From Tubulanus polymorphus (Eukaryota; Animalia; Nemertea), in assembly GCF_964204645.1 (NCBI RefSeq), contig NC_134025.1, forward strand, positions 9,238,001 to 9,302,000: DNA of 64,000 bases. Direction: 5' to 3'. Under the pieces are notes generated by a model. The model did no database searches. It worked only from the letters and a program-made list of their open reading frames with translations, and was not told where the DNA came from. How positions within the stretch are numbered: the first letter of the stretch is position 1; the number at the start of each line of letters is the position of its first letter. A program made the translations under genes and the position numbers. Below are positions 1 to 17,213 of this stretch, piece after piece.

Positions 1-128
1 TAATCTTCTTAAGTCGTTCAGTTTTGATGCACATAATTTCACAACATATGTCGCATTTGAAAACATTTGTTTTCTGAATGTGTGAATATGTTATTTTAAG
101 CAGTTTATTTTTGAATGTAATTTTTCAG

Positions 129-8739
<8,611 letters not shown>

Positions 8740-9848
8740 ATTCTTCCTTCGATATGTGGAATTATTATCAAGCGTGCAATGATGGATTTTATACAAAATG
8801 AGTAGACCATATGAATAAGGTGTACGTGCCTAGCATGTGAAATGACATTTAAACAAAGGCTAAATGCCTGCAATATATAAACATTGTGTTGGAATTTGTG
8901 ATTGCTGATACAGTTTATAACTCTTGTAGAATTATTAGATTCTCACTGAAACACCTTTGGAGAAGTGCACATGTTTTACTAAGTTTTAATTAAGGATACT
9001 TGGAGAAAAAGAAAAACACGTGTAATCGTCTGTCCTATCTCGGGTGTACGCGGTACATAGATTTGACAAACCTGGATAGGTACCCAGTATGCTTCCGTAT
9101 GATAGCATGGTTTAACAATGATTCTCGTGATTGATCTGTTAGTTATTATTGAATGATTTTGAGTGAGAAAGATACGTGCCGTACATTTTTGCTCCCTACC
9201 AACTTGTGTGTTTAATGAAAAAAGCAGTTAGTCGCTTTGCAAAACAAGAAGAAAAAGAATTTAACTATGGTGCTACTTCCATTCTGTGTTATGTTGTGAT
9301 AATCTACAAGAGGAATTTAGGCCCCATCTTGTATAAATTCATCAAAGTATTTAGATAGATTTTATAAATGCTAAACTGACATTGTTGTGTTGTTTTTAAA
9401 ATCAATGCGTGTTTCTCTATCGGCTTTAGCGACTTGCATCTACTTATCCTGTTCACCTATTCATGTATGCAAGGGATAGTCTATAAAGTGTGATTTCGTT
9501 TAATCCATGTTATATGCCTACTTGCTATTCACATGTAACAGATGTGATACTTAAACCTTTCAAAGTAGCAGTGAATGTTTACCATTACATGAAAAATCCT
9601 CCGCAATATGGTAAGCATACAATGAACTTTAATTTGAACAAATTAGATATTTCTTGTAGCTACATTACACTTTAGCTAGTCTTACATATCAAATTTAAGG
9701 TGCGAGTAATTAAATGTAGTATTTATTTAGGAAATGTACTTTTCTCGTAATAGCTTCAAGAAAAAGCTTTAAAAAGTATTTATATGATAAGTGATGAGAA
9801 ATGAGAAAAGTAAGGAATCGTTTATTTGTGATGCATAACGATCTTTTC

Positions 9849-9854
9849 AATAAA
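9849..9854 (+). terminator. Candidate polyadenylation signal (AATAAA) of the NBEAL gene
   Basis: AATAAA about 1.1 kb after the stop, followed by a GT/T-rich tract (TTGTTCTGTTTGTCTTGTTTGTTT), about 240 nt before the AMD1 start codon. Confidence 0.5.
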
Positions 9855-10023
9855 CTTCTTAGTATGATAATCATATGATATTGTTCTGTTTGTCTTGTTT
9901 GTTTCGGTAAATAGCACGAGTTTATTCTACTGTATATGAATGAATATCTAGGAACCCGGAAGAAGGAACCAACCTTTGACAGTTGCCTGAGCTGAACTCG
10001 TCAACTATTAACACTGTACAGCC

Positions 10024-10053
10024 ACGGAGCTCTCGGTCCTGCGGACGAAATAA
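10024..10053 (+). promoter_or_regulatory. Candidate non-AUG (ACG) upstream ORF in AMD1 5' leader, (M)ELSVLRTK*
   Basis: cagccACGg is an optimal Kozak context around a near-cognate codon; 9 sense codons then TAA, ending 42 nt before the AMD1 ATG. Function inferred only. Confidence 0.35.
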
Positions 10054-10095
10054 ACACAGTGCCCTGGGACTTTTTGACATTTTGCGATATCAACG

Positions 10096-13000
10096 ATGGC
10101 AAATGCGGTAAATGGAAATGATTTTTTCGAAGGAACTGAAAAATTATTGGAAGTTTGGTTCGGCTCAACAACCGATGCAAAAACCGCCGATTTACGAAAC
10201 ATTGACAGGTACGTACCGTACTCGTAGAGTAGTAGACCATTAATTGATTATCCACAATTACTAATTAGTGTAGGTACTGTACTAGTGTACATACAATACA
10301 GCCCAGCTAATATTGAAGAAGGCTAATACTACCTGAGCCTTTCAACCAACAGTGGATGTCTCTACAATACCATTGGCATTTTTTAAAAGTTTTTTTTCAC
10401 AAATATTCTTGAATATGATTATCTTTCTCATTACGATATGATAAAACTGATAAACGTCTTTAGTCGATGCATGTTAAAACACATCTATTGTCATTTTGAT
10501 AGCTATTTTTTAACAACAGCTAGGTATTAGACTAGGGTTAGGTTAGTCTGAATACCAGTCGTTGTTACTGTTCCGTGGAAGACTAGGTTGAGTATAGTCA
10601 GTAACCTGTCTGTGGTTGAGATTTTAAAAGATTACCACCGATGATTAGGTAACTAATTGAGTAGTGCTACTTAAAACCACGGTGGAAAAGACCCAGTGCT
10701 AGCAATATGCCCTGGGTTCGAATAGGCCCTACTGGTTCAAAGAAAAATTGAATATTTCATCACAGTAGATTTGATTAATTTACGATCCTTTGACTATTTG
10801 ATCTTTCTTCAGGTCATTTTGGGAATCTTTGCTGGAAAAAGTAAATTGTCAAATCATTTCTTGCAAATCCATAGATGGATTGGATGCATATGTTCTCAGG
10901 TAAGAAGGAATTTCATTTACCAGTATCTTACACCGGTTTAAGAGTAAGCTTACTTTATATAACAAATGACTAAACCAAATTCTTAGTTCAAGATTTTAAT
11001 AATTTTTTGGATTACCGCCATTTGAGTTATTTTGATTAATTCAAATTATTTCTTAAGATTGAAAATGTATCCTAATGTTAAATTAATGTCAATTTTTTAG
11101 TGTTTATTGAAATGGATTTTGATTTAAATTCGGTTTTTTCTTGCAGTGAAAGTAGTATGTTCATATCGAGGAACAGGTTCATTCTGAAGACCTGTGGTCG
11201 TACGACATTGTTACACGCTGTTGACTCGTTATTGAAACAAGCAAAAGAAGAATTAGGATTTGATACAATCGCGGTAGGCCTAATTACGCCATCCTTTGGG
11301 CCCCCAATAATGGAAACCATTATTGGTTTCGAATTTGATTATGCAAAATAATTTCTACTCTTTTAAGGATGTATTCTACTCAAGGAAGAATTTTCTGCGG
11401 CCCGAACTTCAACCACAAATTCATCAGACATTTGAAGATGAGGTATGAAAAACCTGGTTTTATTCAATTCATTCTTGTACTGTAAAGATTAATTAGTAGG
11501 CCTACCTGTAAGATATATTGTGTTCATGAAAATCAAATATTGACTGAACTTTGATAAGGCGATCATCTTGATAACACGGAAGGTTAATTATGTATATTCT
11601 TGTCTGGTTATGAATGTATTTTCATAGTCAACATTTTAGAGATCGCTGTCATTAGTGTCAGACCCAGTTCAAAATATTTCTAAGAAATCACCTGCTTGAA
11701 ATATGATCTCATTGAATTCTAATTGAACAACACGAATCATATGATCTAATATCTCCCATCAGGGTCATATATTCAGAATCAAATGACTTGCACTGGTACT
11801 CGACGCATATCTACCAAATGGAAAAATTTCTGAACTTTTCCGATACATTTGTTACCATAATTGTAGTTGGTAAATAAATGTAGCAAAAAGTTACTGCGAT
11901 TTATTGAAGTACATGCCTGGTATGTCATAAGTGGCAGAAATTGGGCCAAGAAATGCTTAACTTTTGATTGAATTACATGTATAGGCCTATATTGTTATAA
12001 ATTGGAGCAAATAGCTATAGACTACGAGATATCAGCTGAGCCTTGCCCACTAGCGCTATGTAACAGCCATTGAAAAGGTGGGATAGATTTTAAAAACCCA
12101 TATTAAGGAATATTGATATTAACAACCTGTAACAAGCATCCTGTAACAATGTTCTATAATGAGAGACTGCTCGAGTATCAGGCTGCAACCACTCCATCCT
12201 GTTACAAGTGGCAACAACACAGGTGATTGTGTAACAACCTGGTGATGGTTACTATTACGTAGTGGAAATCTAGTAGTATCAATGAAAGTACTTTTAAATC
12301 AGTTATCAGACTTATTTCTATCAATGATTGTATTTCATCTACCAACATGTATCGTAACTTCTGTTTTATTGTCTTCTTTTAATAGGTTACGCATCTTGAT
12401 GAGATTTTTGATGGTAAGTGGATATGAATATCAATACATCTACCTCTCACTAAAAATTATGATATACTATGTAGAAAAGTTGAAAAAAATATTCTTTATC
12501 ATTCATTAGATGGTGCTGCTTATGCCCTTGGTCGCTTGAATGCCGATTGCTGGTAAGTTATCGCCTGTTTCAGAATTTCTCCGAATTTGTTGACGAAGTC
12601 TTAAGATTTTATTATTTTTTTTGGCAGGTATTTGTACACCCTGGATATTGTTGGTGTAGAGGAGCCAGATCAAACCATTGAAATATCCTTTGATACTAAA
12701 AGAAAACATTTATTTTTATGTCATCGAAAACATGAAAATTCTGTTATTCCCATCAATTTCTGATTAGAATAATCATTCTTTGCTTTTATGTATGTACATG
12801 ACTAACAGCTTTAATTGATACCTATTGGATAAAAAAACTATTCATCGATAAAAAGTGCCTTCGATAGATACTTGTTGATTTATTCCATCCCCTTAACCTG
12901 CAAACTTGCTGATGTCAGATCTTGATCCAGAAATTATGAGTATTTTCACGATTGAGAAGTGTAAGACTGGTGCTGAAGCTACAAAGGTAAATGCAAAAAA

Positions 13001-14959
13001 AACAAATCGATGCCATATACAATTTGCAAGTTTGTGTTTATCATTGTGTCTACACCTATAATGTACAATGTACATATACACCTGTTTTTTTACAGATGTC
13101 TGGTATTGATAAGCTGATCCCTGGAGCGATTATTGACGATTTCCAGTTTGATCCATGTGGTTACTCCATGAATGGGCTCTTACCAGAGGTAAAAAGAAAA
13201 GCTTACAAGCATAATGATTTCGCTACTGAAATCAGTACCATAAGTGTTCAAAATCCCTAGATCTAGGCTAGATCCAGTAATACGTGTGTATATGTTGTGT
13301 ATTAATTCAAAATGATTTCCCCTATCTGCTGAAGTTTGTTTCCTACTTGTTTCTTGAATTTTTAGAGAAAGTTATGCAGCAGAAATCAAAAGGTTGGATT
13401 ACATTCTTCGTGCACTTCAAACATTTTTAACCTGCTAGTTTTAAGTGGGCCTATGAAGTGATTCAAACATGCCTTTAATGATAAGCTTGATAAGCTCCAC
13501 TTCTATTTAGTGAAATTTAGCATTTTTAGAGTGCAATGCTATAACCTCATGAAAAGTAGGCTTATTATGAAGTTCAAACCTCGCAATAGGTATTGTTGGT
13601 ACTGTTTTAGCCCACTCATGTTATTGTGTTCACTAATAATCTTAAGTCCCTGCAGCAAGCTTTTAACATGTTCTATGATAGTGGCAAGGTCATTGGTCTC
13701 CGTATATGTTCACCAGGGGGTGTTGAACATTTTCCAGCAATTCAGACCACTACTCCAGTGGGCATGGTCTCCCTTTTTCTGTTCCAAAATTCCTATTCAG
13801 TGATGAATTTTACTATAACCTGTTTAATTCACCCGCCAATTCAATAACCCGTGGTGCTAAATACTACTCCTTTGAATACCCGGTACTACTTCATCAAAGT
13901 TTTAGGATGTGCTTACAAATCTTTTTTAGCCCACTTGGGACATAAGTCCCAGTGGGCTATTGCGTTCACTTTTCATTCGTCCGTCGTCCGTTCGTAGACG
14001 GAATCCAGTTATTTTGGGAAGTTTTGAAGAAGCTTCAAGATAATGTCTTGATATCTGGTTTATACATGTATCTACCCTAGACACATCTTCAGCCCAAAAA
14101 CTGGCCCTGTTAGAATCAAGATGGCCAAGATTTTGTAGTTTATGACATGTTCTATGACTGTGGTGAGTTTCAAGGTCATTGGGTTTTGCATATGGTCACC
14201 AGGGGGCGTTGAATAGTAGAATTACTTAGTATTTCCATATTAAATTGGTAACGAGGCATATTTTGTTATCACAATCAATTACAAAATCATATCTGCTGAC
14301 ATGTTCTATGATTGTGGTGAGTTTCAAGGTCATTGGTTTCTGTATTTGGTCACCAGGGGGCATTGAATATTGAAATTGTTAGATTGTTGAGCATTGGAAA
14401 CCACTTCCCAAGTGGGCATGGTGTCCCTGGACCCCTAGTTTAACATAGATTTAGTGCTTTACTTCATTGTGTTATTCAACATCTCATTTGGAAAATATCA
14501 TCCACATCACACCAATAACAGTTCGTATCTTGAAACATGGGCAAATATAGACGAATATAGCAGATTTTCTGATGTTTTGATTTCAGACTAAGTATTTCAC
14601 GATTCACATCACACCTGAAGAAGGGTTTTCGTACGTGAGTTTTGAAAGCAACGTTGAACAGAAATGCTACCAGCAACTATTGAATATGTTGATCGACACT
14701 TTCAAACCTGGGAAGGTTTTGGCCACTCTTTTCGCAAACAATGTAACTATTTTTTTCCGAAAAACATTCTTTCGAAAATCAGTTTATGCGACGAATATCT
14801 ACGGTATATGATTTGTATTTTCAGACGTCTTATGCTAGTGATTCTTTGAAGCTGTTCGAACGCGATGAACCGTTGCCGAACTTCAAGTGTTCGGACAGAC
14901 AATTTTGTCGGTTCAAGAATTATAACCTTGTTTACGCTCACTTCAAGAAAAATGGCTGA
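10096..14959 (+). CDS. AMD1: S-adenosylmethionine decarboxylase proenzyme
   Basis: Exons 10096-10208, 10813-10899, 11147-11273, 11368-11442, 12386-12413, 12510-12552, 12628-12682, 12906-12986, 13096-13188, 14587-14742, 14825-14959 join in frame. Motifs FFEGTEKLLEVWF, YVLSE|SSMF (pyruvoyl self-cleavage site), ILKTCG, FYSRKNF, PDQTIE-LLMSDLDP, FDPCGYSMNG, TIHITPE, SYVSFESN. Confidence 0.97.
12683..12905 (+). other. U12-type (minor spliceosome) AT-AC intron in AMD1
   Basis: 5' ATATCCTTT, branch CCTTAAC at 12891-12897, 3' AC at 12904-12905; removing it restores the conserved QTIE|LLMSDLDP frame. Confidence 0.93.
13604..13775 (+). mobile_element. Short, internally deleted HINE-family copy
   Basis: Starts TTTTAGCCCAC, carries one internal unit (ACATGTTCTATGA..AAGGTCATTGG..CACCAGGGGG..TTGAA) and ends CAGTGGGCATGGT, as in the adjacent copy. 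Confidence 0.6.
13922..14441 (+). mobile_element. Non-autonomous Helentron-like (HINE) element in AMD1 intron
   Basis: T-tract insertion site, 5' subterminal IR/hairpin GCCCACTTGGGACATAAGTCCCAGTGGGC, GTCC/GTC microsatellite, two ~155-bp internal repeats, 3' subTIR CCCAAGTGGGC plus short palindrome ending CCCTAGTTT; the layout typical of HINE/DINE elements. Confidence 0.8.
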
Positions 14960-15313
14960 GGGTACGCCTTGTCTCGAAACCTACAAGGCTCCAATTCATC
15001 GCCTGACTATGTTGTATATAACGCAATATCTCATCAAAATTCGAATCGTAGAAATGAGCTCAATTTTCTTCGGCTAACAGGCATCCGTGATAATCTATTT
15101 GTGTGTAATTTATGCTTCGGGTGCAAGCTTTTGCAAGATTTTTGTCTTCAGTATTTTGACAAAGTTTCGAAGCTCAATTTGTTAACCATAATATGCTACC
15201 AATCCGTCTTTCTGTGGCGTTCTCAAAGAGCTCGTCGTAAGCACTGGCAAAGATTCCAACTGACAAGTTTTGGGTTTGCTGAATCATGTAAGTATTATCT
15301 AATTCGTATGTAA
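14960..15313 (+). other. Open in-frame extension (117 sense codons) immediately after the AMD1 TGA; candidate readthrough tail
   Basis: AAT GGC TGA GGG TAC GCC TTG TCT CGA... stays open to TAA at 15311-15313; the ORF-track entry 14969..15313 is in the AMD1 frame. Confidence 0.55.
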
Positions 15314-15506
15314 TTCAATGAGATATACAGTATTTGAAGCATTGTTGTTAATGTTGAAATATTTTATAGATTCTTTGTTCTGGAAAATTGTTTATTGATT
15401 TTTCACTTGAGGGGTAATATTTTATGTATTTTATCACTGTGAATCTTGCTGCTGGTATCTTTGTTTAACTTTTACAGTTCTCAATGAAACGTTAAGGGAT
15501 AGTGTA

Positions 15507-15730
15507 CAGTCGACTCTGCTTTATTTTCACATATTTCGTAGACGTTGGCAAGTTTTTTCAGGTCAGACCTTTGTTAAATAATTTATTTTACTCGTAGAAA
15601 TAACTCGTATTTTTGCTTAATCTGTACTAGATTTTTGGTCCATTTAGTGAAATTACATAGTTATCAAAGCAGTTAATGATTACTGCTGAGATTGTCAGCA
15701 CAAAAGTGGCGAGTTAAGTGGAGTCGACTG
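15507..15730. mobile_element. Tc1/pogo(Tigger)-like MITE, 224 bp, downstream of the AMD1 stop
   Basis: TIRs CAGTCGACTC / GAGTCGACTG flanked by TA on both sides. Confidence 0.75.
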
Positions 15731-16438
15731 TACTAGTGTTCAATATTCATAAGTATTCAAATATTTTTTTAACCAATTGGAAAAAATCTTCCCAAAAAAA
15801 TAATTATATTGCAAATATTTTTTGAAAATGTTTCTTGTATATGCATGATTCTTGTTAATAAAGGTTTATCTTATTCAATATCGAGTTATTCCCTTCAAAC
15901 AAAAATACATCCTCTTTATGTATTTTTGCTTCAATGCATTGTACATCCTCCCATTTTCAAAGTATGGATAAGAAGTAAAGTTGAATGTCGTTAGTACAAT
16001 TCTGTTTAAGATTTATTAAGTTTATAAGCCAGTTTATTTTGATGACTTCCAGCATTTGGATAATACAAAACCCATTTAATACGACAATTTCACTTTTGAC
16101 CACAAGATTCGTATTTACGAAGTTCCACTGTATAAAAGATATGTAAAGATAACTTGAATTTGAAGCGTCTCAAAGGAAAATGGCTTGCCTCCCTACCTGG
16201 CTCGATGATGGATCACAAGAACAAAAAGACGTAAATAACTTTCATTATACTCAAATAAATCTAATATTCTATGCATTGGCACAATAAACGGATAATCTAC
16301 CATAATCTGGACAATTCTGTTTCACCTACCGTTGTACAATATTTTTGTGTGCTAAAACTTCACAACAGAATCATATGCAAGTTATTTGACCAAAAAAAAC
16401 AGTAACTGAAGCTACATCTACACTAGCTTCTTATAATA

Positions 16439-17213
16439 CAGTCAACCTTGGTTAATCCGTATCACTAGGGACTGTGCTTTTTAGTACGGATTAAGTGATA
16501 TACGGATAACAGATAATTCGTAATTGATACGATTTAACTATTACCCATATAAACTATGATTTAAGTGCACAATCCGTATAATAGCTGGTTTAGTTATCTC
16601 TCAAACCGTGGACGACTATTACAGTAGAACTAACGATCCATTTGCCATTTGGGGGGGGATAAAAAGTTCATAGTATCCGATGGTCCATTGGTGTGATGAA
16701 ACACAAACCAACTGGTTTCAGTAGAGTAGGACTATTTGAAGTCATTGTCTGTTTAGTACAGATAACCCACGGACCATGTACTTGAGGGCGATTCATCAAA
16801 GGACTTATGCTGATTGACAGATAATAGCATCTGTACTGTATATTTAGTGAAGCTTGAAACTATGAGATTGATGAATTAACTTCAGTGTTTTCTGGAGTTT
16901 CTCATTTCCTACTGACCACATTAACCTCATTAGATTACAATTCAATTAATTTCATGTTTATACTTTTGTCACTTCAAGTGTATGTTCCTAACAGCTGATA
17001 CAGCTGATACGGATTACACATAAGGATTTACATATAAATTGGACAACGGGACCATGCATTTGTCTACGGAATAAGTGAAAATACGGATTATGGAGTACGA
17101 ATTAGACACTGAATTTCAAAGGGCATAACGTCATTGAAAAATGGGACCAATTTATTTATACGGAATAAGCACTAATACGGTTTAACCGGAGACGGATTAA
17201 CCAAGGTTGACTG
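16439..17213. mobile_element. pogo/Tigger-like MITE, 775 bp, between convergent AMD1 and CLYBL
   Basis: Perfect TIR CAGTCAACCTTGGTTAATCCGT / ACGGATTAACCAAGGTTGACTG, TA target duplication, multiple subterminal TACGGATTA repeats; no transposase ORF. Confidence 0.88.

Follow-up and report, generated by a model that had tools for sequence, protein, structure and literature searches.

The AMD1 locus of Tubulanus polymorphus and its transcript

The sequence analyzed here (the window) is a 64,000-nt stretch of the genome of the nemertean Tubulanus polymorphus (contig NC_134025.1, positions 9,238,001 to 9,302,000) that carries AMD1, the gene for S-adenosylmethionine (SAM) decarboxylase. Behind the TGA stop codon of AMD1 the reading frame remains open for a further 117 codons, here called the tail, and the second half of this tail encodes a peptide motif found in the same place in AMD1 loci of other spiralians. 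The open frame is not a product of chance but a conserved feature. Coordinates are listed in Table 1.

A 330-amino-acid database protein (P0002), named at its source as belonging to Tubulanus polymorphus, was 100% identical to the AMD1 exon tested, and PF01536 matched it over residues 9 to 327 (E value, 2.5e-118), which is the full-length proenzyme domain of a eukaryotic SAM decarboxylase. The TGA is the true end of the enzyme: in an alignment of 122 AMD1 proteins, the C terminus of 87 lies 13 residues past a shared anchor and that of the window enzyme 12 residues past it, and none extends more than 40.

The 117-codon run from this TGA to a TAA at 15311-15313, which had been proposed together with its translation in a preliminary description of the sequence, was confirmed by recount, and the other two forward frames of the region carry 5 and 11 stop codons. 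The same description had put the chance of such a run at roughly 1 in 1000; this holds, with 54 of 50,000 dinucleotide shuffles of tail composition and 15 of 50,000 of the composition of 14960-15880 remaining open for at least 117 codons. The GC content of the tail is 39%, versus 29% in the following 351 nt.

Contigs from two studies (X2 and X3), neither with a sequencing run on record as RNA, were treated as transcript assemblies because they skip introns; between them, 7 of the 10 introns of the AMD1 coding sequence (CDS) were among the joints listed. In an X2 contig, 14742 is joined to 14825 and the sequence then continues unspliced to 15614, so that both stops are covered; an X3 contig has the same joint and is unspliced to 15267. 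No other joint was seen at the last AMD1 intron in these contigs. The mature mRNA thus has a long in-frame open reading frame (ORF) directly after the AMD1 stop, a feature of the vertebrate AMD1 C-tail. A GTAAGT donor-like site at 15288, raised earlier as a possible cause of a different tail end, is present but unused in the X2 contig covering 14825-15614; as contigs lose rare forms, a minor isoform may use this site. The tail differs from both X2 and X3 by one substitution (15059 C>T, Leu to Phe) and by no indels, and a one-base deletion in X2 at 15563 lies downstream of it. X4 and X5 gave no contig match on the tail, which carries no weight either way; run X5 bears the same species label, yet is only ~82% alike in two CDS pieces.

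Tail lengths in other AMD1 loci

Eighty AMD1 loci were taken from metagenome contigs with an AMD1 alignment, and the tail could be measured from a stop in 78. Near-duplicates (L021, L055, L070, and L072) and stopless loci (L032 and L060) were dropped before group counts, and eight loci under bacterial record titles were left out of the comparisons. In a quick tree, in which the spiralian clade had a Shimodaira-Hasegawa-like approximate likelihood ratio test (SH-aLRT) support of 85, L003, L004, L007, and L008 grouped with the leech Helobdella and L006 with Aplysia, while L001 and L002 fell among spiralians; L019, L062, L069, and L077 were assigned by best match and C terminus instead.

All five complete spiralian tails are open for 126 to 250 codons, the outcome of a comparison of AMD1 3′ trailers from related invertebrates that the preliminary description had proposed, and two truncated ones show no stop before their contigs run out (67 and 75 codons). 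In 7/7 spiralian loci the open frame starts directly at the stop, and the 14 runs in the other frames all fall short of 100 codons. The median closed tail of the arthropod-like loci (n = 12) is 46 codons, and tails of the unplaced loci (n = 6) range from 17 to 83. For 49 nonanimal loci the median is 11.5 codons, with tails of at least 100 codons in 1/49, or 1/12 where 351 nt were present. No AMD1 loci were found in viral contigs.

A conserved peptide motif in the tail

In all five complete spiralian tails, a hydrophobic segment is followed by a variant of [VI]F-x-W-x-S-x-[KQR]-x-[KR][RKH]K-x-W, the exceptions being L002, without the Phe, and L006, without the second Trp. The window carries the core motif that in this analysis defines the class of spiralian AMD1 tails, and it sits in the hydrophobic, then Arg/Trp-rich second half that had been singled out from the window sequence. 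Over 21 sequences, the hydrophobic segment has a median Kyte-Doolittle value of 1.75 and reaches at least 1.6 in 13.

A profile of the five spiralian tails, from which the window was left out, ranked the window tail first among 2,819 six-frame segments (E value, 1.6e-4; next, 0.065) and scored it at 20.5 bits, versus 16.2 for the best of 5,000 shuffles (0/5,000 as good). When the window was included and the profile searched against 1.84 billion proteins, 19 matches were returned, 18 of them with the motif at their end and one a repeat protein; three were members of the query and 15 were new. Five of the 15 new proteins have AMD1-like C-terminal residues, then Trp at the TGA position, then the tail, an arrangement that fits gene callers reading TGA as Trp. 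The new motif proteins are all unnamed or annotated as hypothetical. A profile built from them scored the window with an E value of 4.7e-9, a value that is not independent, since their query contained the window; for the same reason, the profile that left the window out is the clean test. With these relatives added, the first Trp, the Ser, and the Lys (the three residues used as the anchor) are present in 20/20, the Phe in 19/20, and the second Trp in 17/20, and nine motif-region columns of the window carry the commonest residue of the relatives. No Pfam family was found for the tail, a word-based homologue search with it gave one candidate and none scoring, and sequence searches of PDB with the tail and two profiles returned a single chance match (E value, 1.4).

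A 17-codon block compared in six sequences gave identities of 0.56, 0.60, and 0.34 for the first, second, and third codon positions, respectively, and 67 of 120 same-residue pairs used different codons; between the window and its relatives, third-position identity was 0.28. Most changes in the motif are synonymous, and the constraint acts on the protein. A constrained C-terminal peptide in an ORF kept across species was thus found across spiralians, the window being the one nemertean among them. These results support the earlier proposal of an invertebrate counterpart of the AMD1 tail. Upstream of the motif, neither the window nor L008 has an in-frame ATG; because the window tail has none before its last codon, translation of the motif requires readthrough or some less common route.

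The end of the nemertean tail differs from that of its relatives. The codon at which most relatives stop is GAA in the window (15281-15283), and the stop lies 32 residues from the first Trp, versus 22 to 23 in 20/20 relatives. A penultimate Pro is found in 18/20 relatives, while the window tail ends Ile-Arg-Met. Judging from this arrangement, arrest in Tubulanus polymorphus would either take place inside the tail or be less strong than in its relatives.

The stop codon and its surroundings

The first stop in the window is followed by G (TGA-GGG-TAC), not by the CUAG of UGA-CUAG readthrough genes. The preliminary description had correctly noted this context but counted it as a weakness, which falls away, since TGA-G is usual here: it was found in 14/19 spiralian and arthropod-like loci versus 5/49 others. 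TAG replaces TGA in L006 and L011. An Rfam search of 9300-16700 gave no match to a selenocysteine insertion sequence (SECIS), so the pairing of SECIS and strict TGA seen in selenoproteins is absent; selenocysteine insertion is argued against by this result and by the TAG codons. A subthreshold small nucleolar RNA match in the same region was taken as chance.

A 7-bp hairpin begins 6 nt after the stop in the window, with fold limits picked after inspection. The clitellate-like loci L003, L004, L007, and L008 have stronger hairpins at a similar place (z scores of -2.1 to -4.1), while no significant hairpin after the stop was found in L001, L002, or L006, and the stems were not superimposed in a DNA alignment with four relatives.

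Other features near the stop were also observed. TTA or CTA is frequent at the second codon position behind TGA-G (L001, L004, L007, L008, L010, L015, L017, and L019), resembling a UGA-CUA signal displaced by one codon; in the window this codon is TAC. Most protostome AMD1 enzymes (protein set P0035-P0149) have a lineage-fixed, Pro-containing motif just upstream of the first stop, namely RP[VI][IL] in molluscs, FPS or YPS in insects, APS in chelicerates, and PP-x in annelids, and the window enzyme has none. Such an end could slow termination and favor readthrough. In the unplaced L015 (1031-1282), Pro-Ser directly precedes the AMD1 stop, a long hairpin lies 7 nt beyond the TGA (z score, -3.3), and the 83-codon tail has neither the spiralian nor the arthropod motif. 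In L020 (4546-4635; also in L021), an intronless AMD1-like gene has the canonical TGA-CTAG and a 29-codon tail with a basic Phe-Pro end.

Comparison with the vertebrate C-tail and other systems

The vertebrate AMD1 C-tail was reportedly first described by Yordanova et al. in 2018. On vertebrate AMD1, some ribosomes continue past the first stop and pause on reaching the second, by a clamp/hook mechanism (PMC13025110; PDB 9Q7Q), the trigger being left open in that 2026 structure paper. Human AMD1 readthrough is put at ~2%, and loss of an AMD1-tail reporter proceeds via hydrophobic segments, BAG6, and the proteasome; it is rescued by proteasome inhibition and does not need the pause sequence (bioRxiv 2022.07.20.500724). 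The AMD1 ribosome peak was confirmed, but no queue was found (PMC7089771), and in the original titration test the inhibition came from the vector and the readthrough signal rather than from the test sequence (PMC8831848, introduction).

The spiralian and vertebrate tails follow the stop of the same gene and have similar lengths (127 amino acids in the vertebrate extension, 117 in the window, and 113 to 300 among spiralians). Both have a variable front, hydrophobic segments, and then a conserved basic and aromatic C-terminal peptide, and a penultimate Pro is common to the vertebrate tail and 18/20 spiralian tails. When the two were aligned by eye on Phe111, Ser115 and Arg125 matched, and Lys117 and Arg121 faced Arg and Lys, respectively; neither spiralian Trp has a vertebrate match. 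In this register the human tail ends 7 to 8 residues before the tails of the relatives and 17 before that of the window. The FRK clamp (Lys117, Arg121, and Phe124) with the Arg125 hook no more than 11 residues from the second stop was not found by eye: the window residues at these places are Ala, Lys, Leu, and Ile when counted from the stop, or Arg, Lys, Gln, and Arg in the Phe111 register, where they lie 17 residues too far from it. Word, PDB, and protein searches did not return the vertebrate tail, the presence of PDB 9Q7Q in the searched copy being uncertain. Because the clamp was not found, the spiralian tail is not classed with the vertebrate C-tail family, though it likely works like a member of it; with a partial match by eye, the two may be homologous or convergent.

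One AMD1 extension from an invertebrate has already been published, as a single row of a supplement. Jungreis et al. 2016 (PMC5100048, Supplemental Data S1, row 270) list Anopheles gambiae AGAP009619, the SamDC orthologue, as a readthrough candidate in which 268 codons after TGA-G form a conserved in-frame extension. Unlike the window, it comes from an insect, and it is one row among 353 candidates, SamDC being unnamed in the main text; the Drosophila SamDC orthologue is marked as nonreadthrough there. Since the same source confines abundant readthrough to Pancrustacea, the spiralian case is not explained by a readthrough-rich background (PMC5100048). The arthropod-like tails in our set (L005, L010, L016-L018, and L069) share the gene, TGA-G, and an F-x-W core with the spiralian ones but end F-x-W-x(2-3)-K-[IV]-[SV]-stop, 5 to 6 residues past the Trp and without the RK-x-W half. 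A profile comparison of the spiralian and arthropod motifs was not significant (probability, 0.6%; E value, 0.089; six columns).

Known C-terminal peptides that act in the exit tunnel, XBP1u and human cytomegalovirus (hCMV) uORF2, are likewise short (PMC13025110). W249 of XBP1 lies 11 residues before the end according to the same source, and the second-Trp column has this spacing in 15/20 relatives. These peptides belong to other genes, have other sequences, and are reached by normal translation rather than readthrough, so that the likeness is one of spacing only.

Probable programmed readthrough and alternative explanations

The explanation favored here, with a probability of roughly 0.6 as judged from sequence, is programmed readthrough of the AMD1 stop followed by arrest plus degradation. 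From the conserved open frame with its conserved peptide, we infer each of the steps that follow. A few percent of ribosomes would pass TGA-G, perhaps aided by the 3′ hairpin, and would translate a linker free in length and sequence (tails of 113 to 300 codons). The Trp/Lys/Arg motif would then engage the exit tunnel, delaying termination or elongation near the second stop, and the hydrophobic segment would be captured by BAG6-type quality control. Readthrough would in this way subtract from AMD1 output, probably as polyamine feedback. The anatomy of the spiralian tail suits both functions, the hydrophobic segment being suited to degradation and the Trp/basic motif at a fixed distance to the exit tunnel.

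Several observations weigh against this explanation. No AMD1 link was seen for 10 of the 15 new motif proteins, and a second nemertean tail was not obtained, X5 having given no match. The window tail lacks the conserved spiralian end (penultimate Pro and 22- to 23-residue spacing), and its hairpin is not significant (z = -1.42; 18/200 shuffles as good). Codon usage over the whole tail resembles background (-0.171 per codon versus a background mean of -0.172), as would be expected of a linker free to vary over 113 to 300 codons. Phe124 of the vertebrate clamp is unmatched by eye, being Gln in the window and Leu in 14/20 relatives. Finally, the human stall sequence is dispensable for repression and no queue was found, so that arrest may matter less than degradation.

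A hydrophobic segment with a basic flank is the general layout of a tail anchor, and the tail could instead give rise to a stable, membrane-anchored AMD1 isoform, with neither arrest nor degron. All 21 sequences have a hydrophobic 17-mer followed by a net charge of +4 to +11, and the 13 with a hydropathy of at least 1.6 would suit this role. This alternative is nonetheless unlikely: hydropathy is low in several sequences (0.69 to 1.38; 1.38 in the window), the exact Trp, Ser, Lys, and Trp and the fixed distance to the stop exceed what a tail anchor needs, and the vertebrate counterpart is degraded (bioRxiv 2022.07.20.500724).

The proteasome-dependent loss of the human reporter, without need of the pause sequence, reported in that preprint would also agree with a conserved degron only, where release is normal, destruction follows, and no meaningful ribosome arrest occurs. 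The tolerance of the window for a 10-codon shift of its second stop points the same way, but the 22- to 23-residue spacing and the penultimate Pro (18/20) of the relatives point to geometry at the peptidyl-transferase center, and a degron without arrest is similarly unlikely.

It is improbable that the module works in annelids and molluscs and is decaying in Tubulanus polymorphus, the open frame being a relic. Loss of the conserved end with the 10 extra codons, background-like codon usage, the weak hairpin, and the amino acid-changing linker variant (15059 C>T, Leu to Phe, in X2 and X3) could all be read as decay, but an AT-rich frame has stayed open for 117 codons (about 1 in 1000), and nine motif columns match the commonest residue of the relatives while third-position identity is as low as 0.28.

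Very little probability is given to the motif being reached without readthrough, by alternative splicing around the stop, reinitiation, frameshifting, or selenocysteine insertion. Although contigs lose rare isoforms and the first stop is usually TGA, the frame is open from the stop in 7/7 spiralian loci, no in-frame ATG precedes the motif in the window or L008, L006 has TAG, no SECIS match was found, and 14742-14825 is the only joint at the last intron. Chance opening of a frame within an ordinary 3′ untranslated region, for which a 1-in-1000 event expected in some genes of any genome and background-like codon usage might be cited, is refuted by the recurrence of the motif, in frame after the AMD1 stop, in independent spiralian loci, by the profile that left the window out, and by the columns of the relatives.

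Programmed readthrough into an arrest peptide on AMD1 may further be an ancestral bilaterian control device, with three lineage peptides derived from one hydrophobic-F-x-x-x-S-x-K ancestor, a tentative proposal that falls somewhat short of an even chance. As part of it, the vertebrate clamp/hook, the arthropod F-x-W-x-x-x-K-I-S, and the spiralian double Trp would each have retuned their distance to the second stop. Were this so, few conserved readthrough events in animals would be older, and a single gene would offer a natural series of arrest peptides that have diverged, the nemertean being a case of arrest uncoupled from the stop.

The AMD1 tail has been described as a vertebrate feature, and its purpose is disputed, the queue model having lost support. 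A nemertean, annelid-like, and gastropod-like counterpart shows that selection maintains such a tail beyond the vertebrates and also beyond the insects and crustaceans, which are rich in readthrough. No report of spiralian AMD1 readthrough was found in the literature covered, to which the taxonomic survey of Yordanova 2018 and several supplements did not belong; no paper pairing "AMD1 tail" with "invertebrate" was found, nor was SamDC in the available text and one supplement of a 2026 Drosophila readthrough preprint. With the residues under selection named, simple mutagenesis can separate arrest from degron function, and the motif supplies a candidate new eukaryotic arrest peptide. A set of unnamed "hypothetical proteins" of public collections is also explained as AMD1 3′ extensions.

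Other features of the locus

Table 1. Coordinates of AMD1 and associated features in the window
Feature	Position	Strand	Remarks
5′ leader intron	9611..9951	+	X2 contig pieces 9300-9609 and 9951-10205
AMD1 CDS	10096..14959	+	11 exons, 993 nt, 330 amino acids, one stop
AMD1 exons	10096-10208, 10813-10899, 11147-11273, 11368-11442, 12386-12413, 12510-12552, 12628-12682, 12906-12986, 13096-13188, 14587-14742, 14825-14959	+	
AT-AC intron in AMD1	12683..12905	+	U12-type donor and branch-point sequences; joint 12682 to 12906 in X2 and X3
Canonical AMD1 stop, TGA	14957..14959	+	Putative readthrough site; context TGA-G
In-frame tail	14960..15310	+	117 sense codons; only Met is codon 117 (last)
Hairpin, 7 bp, 6 nt after stop	14966..14989	+	Weak candidate readthrough stimulator; z = -1.42
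Hydrophobic segment, 17 amino acids, moderate, just upstream of motif	15164..15214	+	Candidate degron; mean Kyte-Doolittle 1.38
Spiralian motif V-F-x-W-x-S-x-[KQR]-x-[KR]-[RKH]-K-x-W-x-R	15206..15253	+	Candidate arrest peptide core; first Trp 15215-15217
Ten extra codons and second stop, TAA	15281..15313	+	Relatives stop at codon matching 15281-15283 or one later
Remainder of 3′ trailer	15314..15900	+	AT-rich; extends beyond 15900

The AT-AC intron was called U12 type by the U12 consensus, and no paper on AMD1 with a U12 or minor intron was found in the literature searched. The spliced AMD1 leader contains a 13-codon upstream ORF (uORF) with its ATG on the junction, A at -3, and G at +4, and a second, overlapping uORF of 21 codons whose last residue is Ser. 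These are possible counterparts of the vertebrate MAGDIS uORF.

Upstream of AMD1, window positions 1-8739 hold a neurobeachin-like BEACH/WD40 gene with an exon of ~3.9 kb. The X2 contig with the AMD1 leader (7,587 nt) reaches 6.7 kb further upstream, which suggests that the BEACH/WD40 and AMD1 transcripts may abut or overlap. High-copy repeats with very large summed contig depth were found at 13920-14440 (AMD1 intron 9) and downstream at 16055-16135. Among the AMD1 loci under bacterial record titles, a eukaryote-type SAM decarboxylase was found in L081-L084 and L086, on contigs titled Myxococcota, Bacteriovoracaceae, and Verrucomicrobiaceae.

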